Part shown: positions 17,961 to 43,191 of the stretch, piece after piece
Numbering within the stretch: the stretch's first letter is position 1
Layout: every line of letters starts with the position of its first letter
Assembly: GCA_964293155.1 (NCBI GenBank)
Contig: CAXYYA010000028.1
Location: 1-48,569, forward strand
Reading direction: 5' to 3'
DNA: 48,569 nt
Source of the DNA: an uncultured Bacteroidales bacterium
Lineage (GTDB): Bacteria > Bacteroidota > Bacteroidia > Bacteroidales > Dysgonomonadaceae
Notes under the pieces: generated by a model
Told to the model about the DNA's origin: nothing
Databases searched by the model: none
Seen by the model: only the letters and a program-made list of their open reading frames with translations
Position numbers and translations under genes: made by a program

Positions 17961-18239
17961 TATTATTTTAAACGCTAAGACGCCAAGCCGCTACGTTATT
18001 TTCTCATTTAAAAGAAAGCCTGTCTCTCAGATTATTAGTGAGGTGAAAAATAACTCTTTGCGCCTTCCCGTCTTTGCGCCTTTGCGTACATAAAACGCTT
18101 TTATATGCTGATGTGCGTTATTTTTTGATGAAATGTTGTTAGCGATGTAGTCCCTATAATTATCGGATCACTTCAAACAATGATAAATTGAAAAGATTAT
18201 CATGATTTTGATACAACTTCTTCAATTAACCATAAACTT

Positions 18240-34719: not shown

Positions 34720-35328
34720 TTACGGTTGTACGATATCGGAGAACTGTGACAAATTTAATACTTTTGGTTGATAATCAATGCCTCTGCGCGATAAATTTCG
34801 TACAAACGCCCGCAAATGGTTCTCCGAAGCGCGCAAGAGGTTGGAATAAATCCGTTGGATATCGGGATTGTCGGTTTTCTGCAAGTGCGATTGCAGGTCT
34901 TCGATATCCTGTTCTTCGATCAACGCTCCGGCTTGCAGCGCCTCGATGAGCGTTGTGCCTTTGGTGAGCTCGGTGTACATTTTCTGTAACTCACGATTGG
35001 TAAACACGCCTTCCGCTTTCGCGAGGTCTTTTAACCCATACGTATCCACAAGCCACATCATGGCGTTCTGGTGCACCGTTTCGCTACGCGAAATATTTCG
35101 GAAGATAGGGATGCTATACTGCCGGGCGTAAAACGTATAAACGTCGTGGGCAAGTTTTTCTTCTTCGCGCATGTACTCAATGCTTTGGATGTCGGCCTTC
35201 GTCAGATTTTGCGTTGAAGCCGGTATTCCCATCGTCTTATTCTGTGTGGTTTTAGCCCCATCGGCAGCTTGGGGCAACAAAAGTATTGCCCCTGCCGCGA
35301 TCAGAATGAATAAATATTTTGTTTTCAT
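34720..35328 (-). CDS. Secreted ferritin-like DUF2202-type protein (copy 2)
   Basis: 202 aa with a signal peptide. Motifs MREEEKLAHDVY, SE..H and a second half LIEEQDIEDL ... SENHLRAF. Confidence 0.6.
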   Translation of the reverse strand: MKTKYLFILIAAGAILLLPQAADGAKTTQNKTMGIPASTQNLTKADIQSIEYMREEEKLAHDVYTFYARQYSIPIFRNISRSETVHQNAMMWLVDTYGLKDLAKAEGVFTNRELQKMYTELTKGTTLIEALQAGALIEEQDIEDLQSHLQKTDNPDIQRIYSNLLRASENHLRAFVRNLSRRGIDYQPKVLNLSQFSDIVQP

Positions 35329-35332
35329 TTTT

Positions 35333-36025
35333 TTATGTGTTTATGATAGCGTTGAAATCATCGTTGCTCAATAATTGAGGTTGATATGCAATACCGTTGA
35401 ATTTGAGATTTGCGACAAAGGCTTTCAAATGAAACTGTGAAGCACGGAGTAGATTACCGTAAATTCTTTTGATAAACGGGTTTTCTGTTTCGGCTATTTC
35501 TCTTTGAAGATCAATAATATCGTGTTCTTCGATAAAAGCGCCGGCTTTGTAAGCATCTACAACTGTAAGGGCTTCGGTTGTAAGCTTTGTGTATAAATTT
35601 TGCAATTCTTCGATGTTAAATACCCCCGGTACCGTTTCGGCGGGAGTCTCAATTTTGTAGAGATTAATAAGCCAGGCGATAGCTTTTCCGTGTGCTATCT
35701 CGCTTTTGGAGATGTTGCTGAACACGGGTCTGGCGAATTTTTCGTTAAAATACACATACACATTATTGGCTAATTTTTCTTCTTCGCGCATGTACAGGAT
35801 GCTGTTTATTTCACTTTCGGTGAGTGGCGCGAGTTGCGTATTTGTCAACAAACAAAGCGAATCGGTGGTTGCAGCCAGTGTTGCATCAAGTCGCGTAGTT
35901 GAAACTGCGTTTATCAATGCGGCTTGTTCGGCATTTTCTTCCGGTGAATTTACGCTGTTCGCTTCACAACCGAAAAGCAAAATTGCAAGAAATGCCACGA
36001 CGGAAATTTTTTGATAAGTTTTCAT
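35333..36025 (-). CDS. Secreted ferritin-like DUF2202-type protein (copy 1)
   Basis: 230 aa with lipoprotein-like signal LLFGCE. Motifs MREEEKLANNVY, SKSEIAHGKA and FIEEHDIIDL ... ASQFHLKAF. Paralog of the next gene, 4 nt apart. Confidence 0.6.
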   Translation of the reverse strand: MKTYQKISVVAFLAILLFGCEANSVNSPEENAEQAALINAVSTTRLDATLAATTDSLCLLTNTQLAPLTESEINSILYMREEEKLANNVYVYFNEKFARPVFSNISKSEIAHGKAIAWLINLYKIETPAETVPGVFNIEELQNLYTKLTTEALTVVDAYKAGAFIEEHDIIDLQREIAETENPFIKRIYGNLLRASQFHLKAFVANLKFNGIAYQPQLLSNDDFNAIINT

Positions 36026-37596: not shown

Positions 37597-37626
37597 GGTT
37601 AGACATTTGTATTGATTATTTCCTAC
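37597..37626 (-). promoter_or_regulatory. ECF-type promoter motif, regulon 2, internal site (GTAGGAAA-N13-TGTCTAA)
   Basis: The minus strand reads GTAGGAAATAATCAATACAAATGTCTAACC. The -35-like block overlaps the last codons and stop of the sigma gene. The -10-like block is 20 nt before the anti-sigma ATG 37579. Confidence 0.6.
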
Positions 37627-38161
37627 GGTCATATTCTAATTTTTTTTGCAGAGTGCTTTTTGCACGTTGTAAAAGTTGTTCCACAGCGCCTTCCGATTTT
37701 TTCATGACGGCGGCAATTTCTTTCTGCGGTAATTCTTCGTATTTACTCAGGATGAAAGCTGTTCGTTGCGAATCGGGCAGGGAATTGATGGCGTTTTTTA
37801 TCCGCTTGTCCCGTTCCGATTGTTCCAATCGTTCCAACGGCGTCTTTTCCTCACTCTGTTTGTGAAAGATGTTTTCCAACGATTCCACCACGCGGTTCTT
37901 CTTTTTTCGATTCACAAAATTGATACTCGCGTTTACGGTAATCCGGTACAGCCATGTAACAAATTGGGCTTCGCCCTTGAAATCGGGCAACGATTGATAT
38001 ATTTTAATGAAAACTTCCTGCGTGATATCTTCCGCATCTGCTTTGGAGTGCACAAAACCCAACGTCGTTCGGAACACCATACCCTGGTATTTCTCCATAA
38101 GTTCTTTAAAGACAATGGTGTTACCTGAAATTATTTCTTGTATGAGTTGCTCGTCCGACAT
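37616..38161 (-). CDS. ECF-type RNA polymerase sigma factor (regulon 2)
   Basis: 181 aa. Region 2 EDITQEVFIKIYQ. Region 4 LPDSQRTAFILSKYEELPQKEIAAVMKKSEGAVEQLLQRA. Confidence 0.9.
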   Translation of the reverse strand: MSDEQLIQEIISGNTIVFKELMEKYQGMVFRTTLGFVHSKADAEDITQEVFIKIYQSLPDFKGEAQFVTWLYRITVNASINFVNRKKKNRVVESLENIFHKQSEEKTPLERLEQSERDKRIKNAINSLPDSQRTAFILSKYEELPQKEIAAVMKKSEGAVEQLLQRAKSTLQKKLEYDRRK

Positions 38162-38183
38162 GTGCAGCAGTTCTTTTTCGTTT

Positions 38184-38213
38184 GTTTAGACAACGAAGAC
38201 CGGTTTTTCCTAC
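38184..38213 (-). promoter_or_regulatory. ECF-type promoter motif, regulon 2, autoregulatory site (GTAGGAAA-N13-TGTCTAA)
   Basis: The minus strand reads GTAGGAAAAACCGGTCTTCGTTGTCTAAAC. Blocks and spacing are identical to 37597..37626. The -10-like block is 25 nt before ATG 38161. Confidence 0.6.
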
Positions 38214-38251
38214 GGTTGGTGATAATTTAACATTGCAATTTCGTTAAAAAA

Positions 38252-38282
38252 TTTGGAACTAAAAAAAGTTTTTTTATTTTTG
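38252..38282 (+). promoter_or_regulatory. Primary-sigma promoter for the fimbrillin-like gene (-33 TTTG, 19 nt spacer, -7 TAttTTTG)
   Basis: TTTG at 38252..38255 and TATTTTTG at 38275..38282, with consensus spacing. Divergent from the ECF sigma gene. Confidence 0.6.
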
Positions 38283-38392
38283 CAAAAGATAATGTTCTAT
38301 CGAACAACCGATATCATGATGTGTTAGTTTCTCTTTCGACTGCCGTCTCAGGCAGGTATTTTTTTAGCGCTACTGATTTAAACCAACCAGCT

Positions 38393-39664
38393 ATGAAAAC
38401 GAATTTTTTTATTTTTGGCATAATATCCCTTATGCTTGTATCCTGTTATCAGGAATATCCTGCACATTTTAGGCAGTATATTGATGTGAATGCTTCCATT
38501 GATGGGCTGAAAACCCGCGCCACAAATGCCTCATGGGAAGCGAATGATGCCATCGGAATTTATATGAAAATCAGTGGAGAGGGTTTGTCTGTACCAGCTT
38601 TGGCTGAAAATTCGAAATATATTACCGACGGAACGTCCGCTTTTCAGTCTGCTACGGCCGATGGAGCTATCAGCTTTCCGCTCGACGGCACTGATGTGGA
38701 TTTCATCGCGTATTATCCACATCAAACAACAATCACGGACTTAACGTATCCGGTAAATGTTTCCGATCAAAGCAGCCTGCCGGCTATTGACTTGTTGTAT
38801 TCAAACAATGCCGCGGGGCTAAATTCTCAAAATCCGGATGTTGGGCTGACTTTCGTTCACCAATTATCGAAGATAAACGTGCTAATTATGCCCGAAGATG
38901 CAACGTCTGATTTAAGCGGTTTAACCGTAACGATGACCGGTGTGGGAACCTCCGCAACATTTTCATTAGCCGACGGAACGCTTTCGGCGCCCGCTATCAC
39001 GGGTAATGTCGCATTCAATATGAGTTCCGACGGACGCACTGCTCAGGCTATTCTATTGCCGATGGCCGATTTCACGGGTAAATCGCTTATTATCGCTTTT
39101 GGATCCAATTCTTACGAATTCCCGTTGACTCAAGGGGTAAATATCACTTCTTTCGAAAAAGCAACGCAATACACGTATAACGTTACGCTTTCATCGCAAG
39201 CACTGTCGGTTTCCAACGCAACCATCACCGATTGGGTTACCGGCCCGTCGGAAAATGTGATCATCGGAAGCGTCGGAACGGCGCCTGTAACCGGCGGAAC
39301 ACTCGATGATCCGTTTACTATTGAGGAGGCAATTGCCAATCAGGGGTTGATGGATAGATGGGTAAGAGGGTTTATTGTGGGTTACTATAAAACGACTTCC
39401 TATAAATCATTTACCACAAGTGTAGATGATGTGACGAGCACCACCAACATTGCTTTAGCAACAGTTAGCACAGAGACCGATTCAACCAAAACGTTTCCTG
39501 TACAATTGTCTGCTACCCAAATCAGAGATACACTCAATCTGCTGGATCATCCTGAAAATTTGGGCAGAGAAGTTCTGGTACGAGGAGATTTGGCAACTTA
39601 TCAATACATTGCCGGAATGAAGGCGGCTGATGGAGCAGTAATTAACGGAGATACCATTCCCTAA
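38393..39664 (+). CDS. Fimbrillin-family (Mfa/FimA-like) lipoprotein with an additional C-terminal domain
   Basis: ATG 38393 gives MKTNFFIFGIISLMLVSCYQ (lipobox). Fimbrillin-like blocks SWEANDAIGIYM and DFIAYYPH. The C-terminal ~130 aa (DPFTIEEAIANQG ... VLVRGDLATYQ) look like a separate OB-like module. The track start 38321 is unlikely. Confidence 0.6.
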   Translation: MKTNFFIFGIISLMLVSCYQEYPAHFRQYIDVNASIDGLKTRATNASWEANDAIGIYMKISGEGLSVPALAENSKYITDGTSAFQSATADGAISFPLDGTDVDFIAYYPHQTTITDLTYPVNVSDQSSLPAIDLLYSNNAAGLNSQNPDVGLTFVHQLSKINVLIMPEDATSDLSGLTVTMTGVGTSATFSLADGTLSAPAITGNVAFNMSSDGRTAQAILLPMADFTGKSLIIAFGSNSYEFPLTQGVNITSFEKATQYTYNVTLSSQALSVSNATITDWVTGPSENVIIGSVGTAPVTGGTLDDPFTIEEAIANQGLMDRWVRGFIVGYYKTTSYKSFTTSVDDVTSTTNIALATVSTETDSTKTFPVQLSATQIRDTLNLLDHPENLGREVLVRGDLATYQYIAGMKAADGAVINGDTIP

Positions 39665-40782
39665 TTTACGTGATACCCCTGGCTATGCATTTCCGATGCA
39701 CGAAAGAGGGTGTATTTTTCCTCGTTTAGCGGATAATCCCAGCAACCGAGGCTGTGATAGATTTCGCCGCCGAAACCCGATTTGAATTTATACAACCCGT
39801 ACATCGGGTGTTCGGGATCGGGCGTGGGCGATATGCCGAACATATCATACTGGGTGCAGCCTGCGGCTTTCGATAGCCGGATGGCTTCCCACTGCAACGC
39901 GTATGCAGCCATCAGGTTCCGGTTTTCCGACGAAGAGGCGCCATACAAATACGAACCCCTGTTTCCCGAAATTACCAGAAACATGGCTGCGAGCGGTTTT
40001 TGGTTATATTCCGCAATCAAAAGACGCACACGCGCCGGTGAACGTGTATTATCGGCTTTTGCCGAAAGCACGGCTTCAAAGTATTTTATATCGTTTAGCA
40101 GGATACCGTTTCGTGCCGCCGTCTCTTTGTAGAGTTCATACCACGTGGAAATTTCCTCCATCCCTGCCGATTTTACGGTTGCGCCGCGACGTTGTGCCAG
40201 ACGGATGTTGTAGCGGGTTTTCGGTTTCATGCGTTGCAGGATGCTTTCTTCGTCTTGTCTTAGGTTCAGATAAACGGTACTTGCCGGAAGTATGTTGGAA
40301 AGCGCTTTTTTGAAATTCCAGTTTTCCGTATTGAAATTGAACCGGAATTCTTGTGTGCGTAATTCCGGTTCGCCTTTCCATAAGCCGTTTTCATCAAAAT
40401 TATCGGCTTCTTTTGTCCAGTATGATTCCCAACAAAGATCATAGCGAATGAGGATGCAGTTATTCGGTAAATACGGGCGAATGCTTTCCGATAATTCTTC
40501 CAGAAAAAGGCTTTGAAATTCATCGGATGGTTCCAGTTCAGGGCCGTAAGGCACATACGCCACAGAATGATTCCTGTCGATTTGTTGCAGGACGATCAGC
40601 AGGTCTGAAACCAGCAATTTATCGCTCCTGGAATGAAAAATATCCGACTCCCTCGATTTAAACCCGACAGCAAGCGTTTCGGCGCCCAGCTTGTTCTTTA
40701 CTTCCGACCAAAATGCCGTCTGTTGCAGAATGGGCGTTTTGTTCAGTTCGTCCGTGTCTTTTTTCCGAATATCTAACAGCAT
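39661..40782 (-). CDS. FemAB-family (aminoacyl-tRNA-dependent peptidyltransferase fold, GNAT-like) protein
   Basis: 373 aa. The C-terminal half has NRGSYLYGASSSENRNLMAAYALQWEAIRLSKAAGCTQYDMFGI, typical of FemAB/FemX-like proteins. Confidence 0.65.
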   Translation of the reverse strand: MLLDIRKKDTDELNKTPILQQTAFWSEVKNKLGAETLAVGFKSRESDIFHSRSDKLLVSDLLIVLQQIDRNHSVAYVPYGPELEPSDEFQSLFLEELSESIRPYLPNNCILIRYDLCWESYWTKEADNFDENGLWKGEPELRTQEFRFNFNTENWNFKKALSNILPASTVYLNLRQDEESILQRMKPKTRYNIRLAQRRGATVKSAGMEEISTWYELYKETAARNGILLNDIKYFEAVLSAKADNTRSPARVRLLIAEYNQKPLAAMFLVISGNRGSYLYGASSSENRNLMAAYALQWEAIRLSKAAGCTQYDMFGISPTPDPEHPMYGLYKFKSGFGGEIYHSLGCWDYPLNEEKYTLFRASEMHSQGYHVN

Positions 40783-40872: not shown

Positions 40873-43191
40873 CTATATTGTGAATTTTAACCCGGTAAAG
40901 AACGTGCGCGGTAAAGACGGGCCGTACATGTAGCCGGCGTCGCGAAGCGCTCCCTGATCAAAATCCTGCTGAAAGCTATTGAAAAGGTTCTGTATACCTG
41001 CGTTAAGTTGCACAAAAGTGCTAGTCGTTAAGCGAAAATCTTTTGCTACTTTAACAGTAAGGTCGAAAAAATCCGGTGTTCGCACCGCGACATCTTCCGG
41101 CACATACCCGGCAAAGTGTTGTACCCACATAGGTCCTGTATATACGCCTGAAACTGAAATGTTGAACGTTTCAACCGGTAATATATTGGCAGTAAGGTAG
41201 CCATAAACATCTGGTGTGCGAAACATATTTCGTTTCGGTACCACATCGGGATTGTTGCTCCACGATTCAGCTTCGTCATACAAACTCTCTTGAACTGTTG
41301 CGCCCAACTGAAGTTGAAATTTACGGCTTGGAGCTATTTTTCCTTCCATGTTTAGGCCTTTAACCACTGCCCCTGATCCGTTTCTCCTTTCCTGTAATAA
41401 ATTTCCTTGCTCATCTCTTCCGATCTCTTCCAGCAGAAACACGTCTTTCAGGTGCGTATAAAACCCTTCGATCAGCAGGTTGGCTTGCACAACGCCGAAT
41501 GTTCTGTAGATATCGGCCGATATACTGAAAGTTTGTGACCGCTCGGGTTTGAGATCAGGAGAGAGCTGAATGATGCATACCTCTCCGCCTACGGCGGTAA
41601 TGTGCAAGTCTTCATCGAAAGCCTGCGGAGCCCGAAAACCAGTGGAATATCCGCCGCGAAACACGATAAACGGGTTAGGAGTATAACGCACGTTTATCCT
41701 CGGACTAAAAATAGCATCCTGTATCAGGTTGTGCTTATCTAAGCGGGCGCCTAGTAAGATACTCCATTGCTCGTTTTTCCATTCGTTCTGGGCAAAAACA
41801 CTCTGTATATTCACCGATTGATCCAGAATGCGGTTATATCCGAGCATTTGGTCGTGCATTACGTTATAATTCATTTCCAATCCAGCGGTGATTATTGAAG
41901 GCATAAACAGAAAACGATCCGCACTGTAGTTGTATTGCATGCCGCCCATCATGCTTTTATCGTTTGTTGTTCCGTAAGCATTCGGGTCTTTCTGCGCGCC
42001 GTAGTAACTTTGTCTGTCTATAAATTGCCCTGAGAGATACAGGTTTACCTTGTGTTTGTAATCGCGCGACAACACGTTATAGTTTATGTTTGCGGAGTGA
42101 ATGTTATGTTCCGCTTGTTCGGTGATATCGGTTTCGTGTGGTGGTTTATGGAGCAGATTACCGCCACGACGGAATTCGTTGATAAAATGATATTCGGCTT
42201 TGAGTTTATGATAGTTGTTGAAATTATAAAACCCGCGAAGCCCGATATTGCTGCTATTCAATTTGCCAATTTCGGTAAATCCGTCGCCGTCGTAATCCAG
42301 CGCAGCGCGCTGGCGTGAGGAGCCGAAGATCATCATGCCCGTTTTTAAATTGCCGTTTACCAGTGAGGTGTGAAAGGAGAGGTTGTTGTCCGGTGATTTT
42401 CCGTTGATAATATTTGTAACATTGTTAATAGATAATGAGTTGGCTTTGGGCTCTTTTGTTATGATATTTATAGTCCCCGCTATAGCGTTAGAGCCGAACA
42501 AAGCCGATCCGCCGCCGCGTACAACTTCAACACGCTCAATCATATTGGCGGGAATCTGCTCGATGCCGTACACGCCGGCCAATGCGCTAAAGATAGGACG
42601 GCTGTCAATAAGGATTTGTGAATATGGACCGTCTAGTCCGTTGATGCGAACCTGCTGAAATCCGCAATTCTGACAGTTGCTTTCTACACGTAATCCCGGC
42701 TGAAAGTTCAATCCCTGCGCCAGCGTTACGGAATTGGTGTTTTCCATAAGCAACGGAGTGATAACGTTTACTATCGTGGGCGCTTCTCTGCGTTTAGTTT
42801 CTGTGCGGTTGGCAGATACAACTACCGTTTCAAGTATTATCTCGTCGTCATCTACTTCGAAATTTACTTCAATGGTTTCACTCTCCTGTAAAGTAACAGA
42901 TTTTTCTACCGGCTTATATCCTATACCGGAGACCATTAGCGTGAAATTTCCTTCGGGCAGGTTTTTTAGGTAATAATGTCCCGATGCGTCGGTTGAAGTG
43001 CCGAAGTGGGTTCCTTTTAAAGATACAGTTACAAAGGGAATATGTTCCTTTGTGGATTTATTGAGCACGTGTCCAATAATATTGGCATCGCTACTTCTTT
43101 GTCGATTACGATGCTGATGTCTGTTTTGTTGTGGAAATACAGCGGTTGTTATGCTGAACAAGATGCACAGCACTATAATAATTTTTTTCAT
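40873..43191 (-). CDS. TonB-dependent outer-membrane receptor with a carboxypeptidase-regulatory-like N-domain
   Basis: 772 aa with a signal peptide, then His/Arg/Gln-rich QQNRHQHRNRQRSS. CarbopepD_reg-like block GHVLNKSTKEHIPFVTVSLKG...GHYYLKNLPEGNFTLMVSGIGYKP. Plug and barrel follow. Confidence 0.9.
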   Translation of the reverse strand: MKKIIIVLCILFSITTAVFPQQNRHQHRNRQRSSDANIIGHVLNKSTKEHIPFVTVSLKGTHFGTSTDASGHYYLKNLPEGNFTLMVSGIGYKPVEKSVTLQESETIEVNFEVDDDEIILETVVVSANRTETKRREAPTIVNVITPLLMENTNSVTLAQGLNFQPGLRVESNCQNCGFQQVRINGLDGPYSQILIDSRPIFSALAGVYGIEQIPANMIERVEVVRGGGSALFGSNAIAGTINIITKEPKANSLSINNVTNIINGKSPDNNLSFHTSLVNGNLKTGMMIFGSSRQRAALDYDGDGFTEIGKLNSSNIGLRGFYNFNNYHKLKAEYHFINEFRRGGNLLHKPPHETDITEQAEHNIHSANINYNVLSRDYKHKVNLYLSGQFIDRQSYYGAQKDPNAYGTTNDKSMMGGMQYNYSADRFLFMPSIITAGLEMNYNVMHDQMLGYNRILDQSVNIQSVFAQNEWKNEQWSILLGARLDKHNLIQDAIFSPRINVRYTPNPFIVFRGGYSTGFRAPQAFDEDLHITAVGGEVCIIQLSPDLKPERSQTFSISADIYRTFGVVQANLLIEGFYTHLKDVFLLEEIGRDEQGNLLQERRNGSGAVVKGLNMEGKIAPSRKFQLQLGATVQESLYDEAESWSNNPDVVPKRNMFRTPDVYGYLTANILPVETFNISVSGVYTGPMWVQHFAGYVPEDVAVRTPDFFDLTVKVAKDFRLTTSTFVQLNAGIQNLFNSFQQDFDQGALRDAGYMYGPSLPRTFFTGLKFTI

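Follow-up and report, generated by a model that had tools for sequence, protein, structure and literature searches.

Repeated ECF-type promoter-like motif upstream of a Bacteroidota sigma factor gene and across its stop codon

Introduction

In Escherichia coli, rseA P3 is a sigma-E-dependent promoter that lies inside rpoE and gives an rseABC transcript, alongside the sigma-E-dependent promoter of rpoE (2006 work, described in PMC8595263). In the sigH-rshA locus of Corynebacterium glutamicum, the SigH-dependent promoter PrshA transcribes only rshA, which was proposed as a means of shutting the response down rapidly (Busche et al. 2012, PMC3489674). Here we describe a comparable, predicted arrangement on contig CAXYYA010000028.1 of an uncultured Bacteroidales bacterium; the whole stretch of DNA that was analysed, 48,569 nt, is referred to as the window. 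It encodes an extracytoplasmic function (ECF) sigma factor and, immediately downstream, a 97 amino acid putative anti-sigma factor. The same bipartite, promoter-like motif was found upstream of the sigma gene (designated P1) and again across the sigma stop codon (designated P2).

As in E. coli rpoE-rseA, an ECF sigma gene is followed by the (here putative) anti-sigma gene, with a (here predicted) promoter for the operon's own sigma factor upstream and a second within the sigma coding region that is predicted to yield the anti-sigma without the sigma factor. The -10 sequence is also nearly the same (TCTAA), the spacing between the -35 and the -10 is the same and the sigma proteins are related. 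However, in E. coli P3 is located 228 nt upstream of rseA and produces a long leader regulated by a small RNA, whereas the site described here straddles the stop codon and has a predicted leader of approximately 14 nt. The -35 reads GTAGGAA here compared to GGAACTT in E. coli, the 97 amino acid protein is unrelated to RseA and the two systems belong to different phyla. The position of the site was seen to be conserved across a clade, a point that the report on E. coli (PMC8595263) does not cover.

Like PrshA, P2 is a site with the sigma consensus just upstream of the (putative) anti-sigma gene, and a transcript lacking the sigma gene is predicted from it. In contrast to what is proposed for this locus, transcription of sigH in C. 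glutamicum relies on housekeeping promoters, without autoregulation. The C. glutamicum anti-sigma factor is of the cytoplasmic zinc-binding type, and mapping placed the transcription starts at 62 and 66 nt upstream of rshA (PMC3489674). The more distant Bacteroidota relatives that have the stop-codon site without the upstream site are closer to the C. glutamicum layout. As rseA P3 and PrshA are established precedents, the design itself is not new; the present locus extends it to a further phylum and a further ECF group. It is set apart from the precedents by a -35 that is fused to the stop codon, by the very short predicted leader and by conservation at the scale of a clade. A search of the accessible literature returned no description of the motif or the arrangement in Bacteroidota, which is not proof that none exists.

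Comparison of the sigma factor with 20 reference ECF sigmas from the Rhodius 2013 library (groups 01-34) revealed the best references to be ECF04 (43% and 38% identity, 129 and 123 bits). The others scored at most 91 bits, and an ECF20 reference was placed below ECF04. The more recent classification of Casas-Pastor et al. (2021, PMC7826278) places ECF04 of the original scheme in ECF249, of which it makes up a minor part. For the present sigma, this classification gives no more than hints, towards ECF281/ECF290 or ECF03/ECF249. The ECF04 references differ in that they come from Chlorobi; the identity is low and no ECF04 promoter is listed in the Rhodius 2013 library. The same classification (PMC7826278) describes a heavy-metal resistance protein at +2 in ECF281 and ECF290, with a zinc-finger (ECF281) or RskA-like (ECF290) anti-sigma. 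The gene order described here is alike, namely sigma, the putative anti-sigma at +1 and a PF13801 protein at +2, but the 97 amino acid protein matches neither the zinc-finger nor the RskA type in Pfam or NCBIfam.

The motif in the window

Analysis of the minus strand of the window revealed two copies of CCGTAGGAAA-N13-TGTCTAA, the positions of which are given in Table 1. The original prediction had described one bipartite motif occurring twice at equal spacing, and the sequence was as it stated: the core that it gave, GTAGGAAA-N13-TGTCTAA, is located at 38213..38186 and 37626..37599 (minus). These were the only two exact matches in 48,569 nt and there were none in 100 dinucleotide-preserving shuffles. 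Allowing up to three mismatches gave one additional site, at 18238, which is the chance level. Both blocks were present as predicted, but the -35-like block is longer than had been reported, the sequence common to both sites being ACCGTAGGAAA (11 nt; direct repeat D5, spacing 587 nt). The 13-nt spacers of the two sites were identical at 1 of 13 positions. As the blocks are shared and the spacers are not, the two sites are not a duplicated segment; segmental duplication was ruled out, since only the 11-nt and 7-nt blocks are common to both.

Both strands of the window were also scanned with a position weight matrix (PWM) built from orthologous sites. The upstream site scored 32.1 bits and the stop-codon site 32.9 bits, and no other site on either strand of the window reached 12 bits.

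The TGTCTAA block of P1 is separated from the sigma ATG by 24 nt, and that of P2 from the ATG of the 97 amino acid gene by 19 nt. Both sites are thus just upstream of a start codon, as had been predicted, at these distances rather than the 25 and 20 nt originally given. The P2 spacer opens with the TAA stop codon of the sigma gene, and the reading frame here (open reading frame 38161..37616) is CGT AGG AAA TAA (R R K stop), confirming the earlier statement that the second -35-like block is encoded by the last sigma codons.

The -10-like block is of the (T)GTC(T/A)AA type and is 16 nt from a 7-nt -35, such that GTAGGAA-N16-TCTAA can be overlaid on the E. coli PrpoE sequence GGAACTT-N16-TCTAA. 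Because the geometry is as in PrpoE, where the +1 is six bases after TCTAA, transcription from P1 is predicted to start near 38180, with a leader of approximately 19 nt, and from P2 near 37593, with a leader of approximately 14 nt to the next ATG.

Conservation in related loci

The window was compared with 166 related loci (designated L numbers), of which 80 were matches listed from a genome collection, 80 were from metagenomes and 6 were obtained by exact-protein look-up. The matches listed from the genome collection, which was scanned with a sigma alignment as the query, were mostly distant paralogues with few orthologues, and served as negative controls; close relatives were obtained from the metagenome scan and the exact-protein look-ups. 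The orthologous operon set consisted of 21 distinct loci in which the sigma was at least 47% identical and homologues of the 97 amino acid and Metal_resist proteins were encoded downstream, the Metal_resist homologue being present in all except L088.

A search of 2.13 Mb (the related loci and the window, both strands) with the regular expression TAGGA-N15-17-GTC[TA]A returned 34 matches. Thirty of these were at the sigma stop codon or 46-67 nt before the sigma ATG, and only where the sigma was at least 47% identical. No match was found at these two places in loci with more distant sigmas, the motif being absent below about 45% identity. The PWM was built from 30 distinct sites and reads CC(G/A)TAGGAAA-N13-TGTCTAA. 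When 2.24 Mb were scanned with it, 48 sites of at least 16 bits were found; all were on the sigma strand and 46 were at the two expected places. Additionally, the positions left free by the regular expression (CC, R, AA and the T preceding GTC) were strongly conserved. In a positional scan, 17 of 22 loci had a match within 60 nt of the stop codon and 14 of 21 had one within 120 nt upstream of the start, with 0-1 in each of the control windows (0 in those for the upstream region).

Within the orthologous operons the stop-codon site was present in 20 of 21 and the upstream site in 17 of 21, the latter 46-67 nt before the ATG. Three loci (L008, L088 and L092) had the stop-codon site only. In most loci each site ended 19-32 nt before a start codon, and the layout was retained across Bacteroidales, Paludibacter, Prolixibacteraceae and Chitinophaga-like genomes. 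The stop-codon site had a higher PWM score than the upstream site in 11 of 15 pairs, with 1 tie, which fits P2 being at least as important as P1. The proposal that both copies are functional sigma-type promoters gains strong support from this comparison, as relatives from several Bacteroidota lineages have the motif at these two places and almost nowhere else, with only the blocks conserved and with the stop-codon copy found in several registers.

No further sites were detected in the stretches of the relatives that were scanned (up to 20 kb each), apart from a third copy of the motif in one locus. This copy (L089:184-215) reads CCATAGGATT-N14-TGTCAAA, scores 18.4 bits and is approximately 70 nt upstream of a DUF6799 gene, with the sigma gene 2.6 kb further downstream on this strand. 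The DUF6799 gene of L089 is a candidate for a further member of the regulon.

In the 25 nt preceding the P1 -35-like block, the closest relatives (L001, L081, L082 and L161) have AAAAAT(T/C)GTA(A/C/T)CTTTA in common, immediately upstream of the P1 -35 sequence CC(G/A)TAGGAAA. The window and L084-L086 have only the more distant GAAATTGCA in common upstream of P1 (about 38244..38236 in the window). This shared sequence could be an UP-like element or merely reflect recent common descent.

Constraint at the sigma stop codon

When the 3′ regions of the sigma genes were aligned, TAGGA and TGTCTAA proved invariant, whereas the spacer and flanks were variable. Relative to the stop codon, the -35-like block occupied at least five registers. 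It is read as cgt agg aaa TAA (RRK-stop) in the window and L001, as gta gga aaa/aat TAA (VGK-stop or VGN-stop) in L002, L084 and L086, and as gta gga TAA (VG-stop) in L003. In L081, L085, L161 and L165 the stop codon is inside the block (ccg TAG gaaa), and the same is true of L087, L088, L091 and L008, in which ccg is replaced by cca or gca. The block follows the stop codon in L082 and L092 (TAA ccgtaggaaa or TAG ccataggatt) and is seven codons before it in L004 (ata gga aaa tca aaa aaa TAG tgtctaa).

The C-termini of 120 sigma homologues matched these register classes: 51 ended in P, 34 in [VI]G[KN] and 7 in RRK. The sigma tail following region 4.2 varied in both length and sequence. In L165 the site remains on the stop codon despite an intergenic gap of 128 nt, approximately 100 nt away from the next ATG. 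The L006 site is located 54 nt past the stop codon. Since at least five registers are retained, the constraint acts on the DNA and not on the protein. A constraint at the level of the protein or of translation fails to explain the register pattern, which is accounted for by a DNA-binding event. It would follow that selection on DNA dictates the last residues of the sigma protein.

Proposed regulation and alternative explanations

The most probable explanation, to which we assign a probability of about 0.8, is that RNA polymerase associated with the ECF sigma encoded between the two sites uses both of them as promoters, P1 being autoregulatory and P2 serving the putative anti-sigma gene and the genes downstream of it without the sigma gene. 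P1 would transcribe the sigma gene and everything downstream. P2 would have its -35 embedded in the 3′ end of the sigma reading frame, last codons and stop codon included. From P2 a second transcript would begin shortly before the 97 amino acid gene and encode the putative membrane anti-sigma, a Spy/CpxP-like periplasmic protein and the secreted proteins that follow, without the sigma factor. Once released, the sigma would fire P1 and P2 together. The anti-sigma and effectors would then be made from two promoters and the sigma from one, and induction would raise the former more than the latter. With two promoters for the anti-sigma and one for the sigma, negative feedback would outweigh positive feedback, which would be expected to give a tight off state and a quick shut-down. 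Modelling has shown that the behaviour of such networks is set by how much sigma is synthesised relative to anti-sigma.

A number of observations weigh against this explanation or reduce its support. The -35 block, CC(G/A)TAGGA(A/T)(A/T), does not contain the AAC core that is typical of ECF promoters, and for this reason only its position assigns it to sigma region 4. The region 4.2 recognition helix differs as well, being AVEQLLQRAK here and TVRSRIFRAR in E. coli sigma-E, which is in line with a -35 block that is not of the AAC type. The subgroups that have -35 variants (CCATAGGAT in L087-L092 and cGAAGGAA in more distant homologues) differ in this helix, which speaks for the explanation. That the -35 variants change together with the helix is suggestive only, as the comparison is confounded by phylogeny, which could explain it. 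P1 was not found within 150 nt in L005, L008, L088 and L092, and L005 has neither site. The identity of the 97 amino acid protein as an anti-sigma is putative, being drawn from position, topology and weak matches below the cut-off. The sequence scanned comprised 48.5 kb of this genome and up to 20 kb per relative. Finally, the training sites were collected with the regular expression, which in itself accounts for part of the invariance of TAGGA and GTC; the conserved flanking positions and the positional enrichment are independent of this bias.

The link between this sigma and the motif rests on sequence comparison and Bacteroidota are rich in ECF sigmas, with approximately 22 per genome on average, so a different, paralogous ECF sigma encoded elsewhere could read the motif and the operon would then be a target of cross-regulation. 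We consider this unlikely, as the motif is in the classical autoregulatory position, tracks the orthologues of this sigma until it disappears below about 45% identity and has -35 variants that shift together with the sigma's own region 4.2 helix. The two blocks could also be the binding sites of a separate repressor or activator instead of promoter elements. Their centres are about two helical turns apart, such that a dimeric protein could in principle bind, and the action of another factor would be compatible with the distribution of the TAnnTTTG box (the -7 element of the Bacteroidetes primary sigma). This box was not found on the sigma strand within 300 nt upstream in 19 loci (38162..38392 in the window); the opposite strand of the same regions had 13, for divergent genes. 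As about 2.5 would be expected by chance, the absence is only weak evidence; if it is real, the sigma may owe its basal expression to a non-canonical promoter or to P1. The two blocks, however, are not repeats of each other, either direct or inverted, and the TGTCTAA -10 and the spacing of the blocks fit promoters of the sigma-E type. All 48 PWM matches are on the coding strand, in most loci ending 19-32 nt before a start codon, and no regulator gene is conserved in the operon in the compared loci. A separate regulator is thus judged to be quite unlikely.

The 3′ copy overlaps the last sigma codons and closely precedes the next start codon, a location at which selection could act on translational signals. 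If so, only the upstream site would work as a promoter and the second would be retained by coding, stop-codon or translational constraint. This is very unlikely given that the same DNA is found in at least five registers, in which it encodes RRK, VGK, VGN, VG, a stop codon or no protein, and given the variable sigma tail, the distances of the sites in L165 and L006 from the next ATG and the sigma stop codon, respectively, and the higher scores of the stop-codon site in 11 of 15 pairs. The sigma mRNA certainly includes the second copy, and the motif was also considered as an RNA structure or processing site of the sigma/anti-sigma mRNA. Neither motif region folded better than shuffled sequence (z = +0.60 and +0.51) and an Rfam search found no family matching the motif regions, on which grounds an RNA element was ruled out. 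The blocks never vary, so there is no covariation to indicate a helix, and the upstream copy is where a promoter and not a transcript would be expected, which leaves a role at the RNA level scarcely credible.

More distant homologues and significance

Among sigma homologues with 34-44% identity, 19 of 132 loci had GGA(A/T)-N14-17-(C/T)GTC at the sigma stop codon, whereas 3 of 129 had it upstream of the start, which is the background level. The site of these distant homologues, cGAAGGAA-N13-CGTCTAA, is encoded in two frames, giving sigma tails of RRK-stop or of EGK-stop, EGN-stop or EG-stop. Sites of the form cGAAGGA(A/T)-N13/14-(C/T)GTC(T/A)A were present at the sigma stop codon of L011, L015, L021, L026, L029, L030, L031, L035, L038, L053, L061 and L079. 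The lineages with the distant site included Cytophagales, Saprospiraceae, Flavobacteriales and Chitinophagales, among others.

The distant homologues are enriched for the site at the stop codon and not upstream, their tails are encoded in two frames and three of the closer orthologues have only the stop-codon site. On this basis we tentatively suggest, at somewhat less than even odds, that in a broad Bacteroidota clade the stop-codon promoter is ancestral and the primary target, and that autoregulation of the sigma gene came later or is optional. The circuit would then have been one of negative feedback first, and the variable sigma tail would be a by-product of the promoter DNA and not a peptide under selection.

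The promoter specificities of Bacteroidota ECF sigmas are almost unknown. As of 2020, the EcfO motif of Bacteroides fragilis was the only one identified, with none for Bacteroides thetaiotaomicron. If both sites are promoters for the sigma encoded between them, the motif provides a precise promoter model for an uncharacterised and widespread sigma/anti-sigma/Spy-like module. It would also represent a separate sigma-dependent promoter for the anti-sigma that is conserved at the scale of a clade and compressed onto the sigma stop codon. Such a sequence could be used as a compact orthogonal promoter in synthetic biology, and its position could provide a rule for finding internal promoters of this kind during annotation. 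The general understanding of ECF signalling is unchanged.

Organisation of the operon and its neighbours

The features of the operon are listed in Table 1. The original prediction had called an ECF sigma gene, and this was upheld by matches to Pfam Sigma70_r2 (58.8 bits, residues 21-88) and Sigma70_r4_2 (57.9 bits, residues 120-171) and to NCBIfam TIGR02937 (120 bits, cut-off 42.9). No match to region 3 was found in Pfam, which fits the ECF layout, as does the length of 181 amino acids (approximately 180-200 in ECF sigmas). The nearest solved structures were AlgU, E. coli sigma-E and SigW, with 1or7 and 6jbq at E=4e-20. Homologues of the sigma were found in Dysgonomonadaceae and other Bacteroidales.

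Table 1. Positions of the promoter-like sites and genes of the sigma operon in the window
Feature	Position	Strand	Basis or detail
P1, ECF-type promoter-like site	38186..38215	minus	Upstream of sigma gene
P1 -35-like block, CCGTAGGAAA	38215..38206	minus	
P1 spacer	38205..38193	minus	13 nt
P1 -10-like block, TGTCTAA	38192..38186	minus	
P2, same two blocks	37599..37628	minus	Across sigma stop codon
P2 -35-like block, CCGTAGGAAA	37628..37619	minus	Encodes (D)RRK
P2 spacer	37618..37606	minus	
P2 -10-like block, TGTCTAA	37605..37599	minus	
ECF (group 4) sigma gene, 181 aa	37616..38161	minus	Pfam and NCBIfam
Putative anti-sigma, 97 aa	37286..37579	minus	Position, topology, weak profiles
Metal_resist (Spy/CpxP-like) protein, 191 aa	36718..37293	minus	Pfam PF13801, 30.4 bits (cut-off 29.2)
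Small secreted protein, function unassigned, 187 aa	36124..36687	minus	Open reading frame; weak DUF6520 match
Two DUF2202 (ferritin-like) genes	34720..36025	minus	Pfam PF09968, 132.7 and 147.2 bits

The next gene had been called an anti-sigma gene. Its position and single-pass topology agree with this, but the profile matches are weak and all are below the cut-off: NCBIfam 'antisigma' scored 21.7 bits (cut-off 100; E=1.6e-4) and DUF5056 18.3 bits (cut-off 28; E=0.003). The protein has a cytoplasmic N-terminus of approximately 44 amino acids, one transmembrane helix and a short conserved C-terminal tail, and a homologue follows the sigma gene in every orthologous locus. Between the sigma gene and the homologue of the 97 amino acid gene, L004 (4603-4757) and L005 (4576-4728) have an additional small open reading frame containing Cys (e.g. 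MNCSICERKLNDYLEG...), which may encode an anti-sigma of the zinc-finger type.

The Metal_resist protein has an N-terminal membrane anchor or signal and is conserved at +2, and its gene overlaps the 97 amino acid gene by 8 nt. The small secreted protein is encoded by the fourth gene of the conserved core unit, with a gene of 138-148 amino acids at the same position in L161, L163 and L165. The DUF2202 genes are also present downstream in L161 and L089 and are absent in L163 and L165; they may be part of the same transcription unit. No minus-strand terminator-like site was predicted from 38161 to 31576, in a scan of the window for sigma-70-type promoters and terminators that was not designed for Bacteroidota and the output of which was at the level of shuffled sequence.

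Upstream of the operon, the window encodes a divergent Mfa-like fimbrillin lipoprotein (38321..39664, plus strand; probable true start near 38393), a FemAB-family protein (39661..40782, minus strand) and a TonB-dependent receptor (40873..43191, minus strand). The motif was not found at any of these three neighbours. Directly after the operon, the region between 29678 and 34685 (minus strand) encodes PqqD, an ATP-grasp enzyme, an Orn/DAP-type pyridoxal phosphate-dependent decarboxylase and a urea-transporter/M23 peptidase fusion. This set, which looks like a small peptide-modification or amine-related cluster, was also retained after the sigma operon in L161 and L165.

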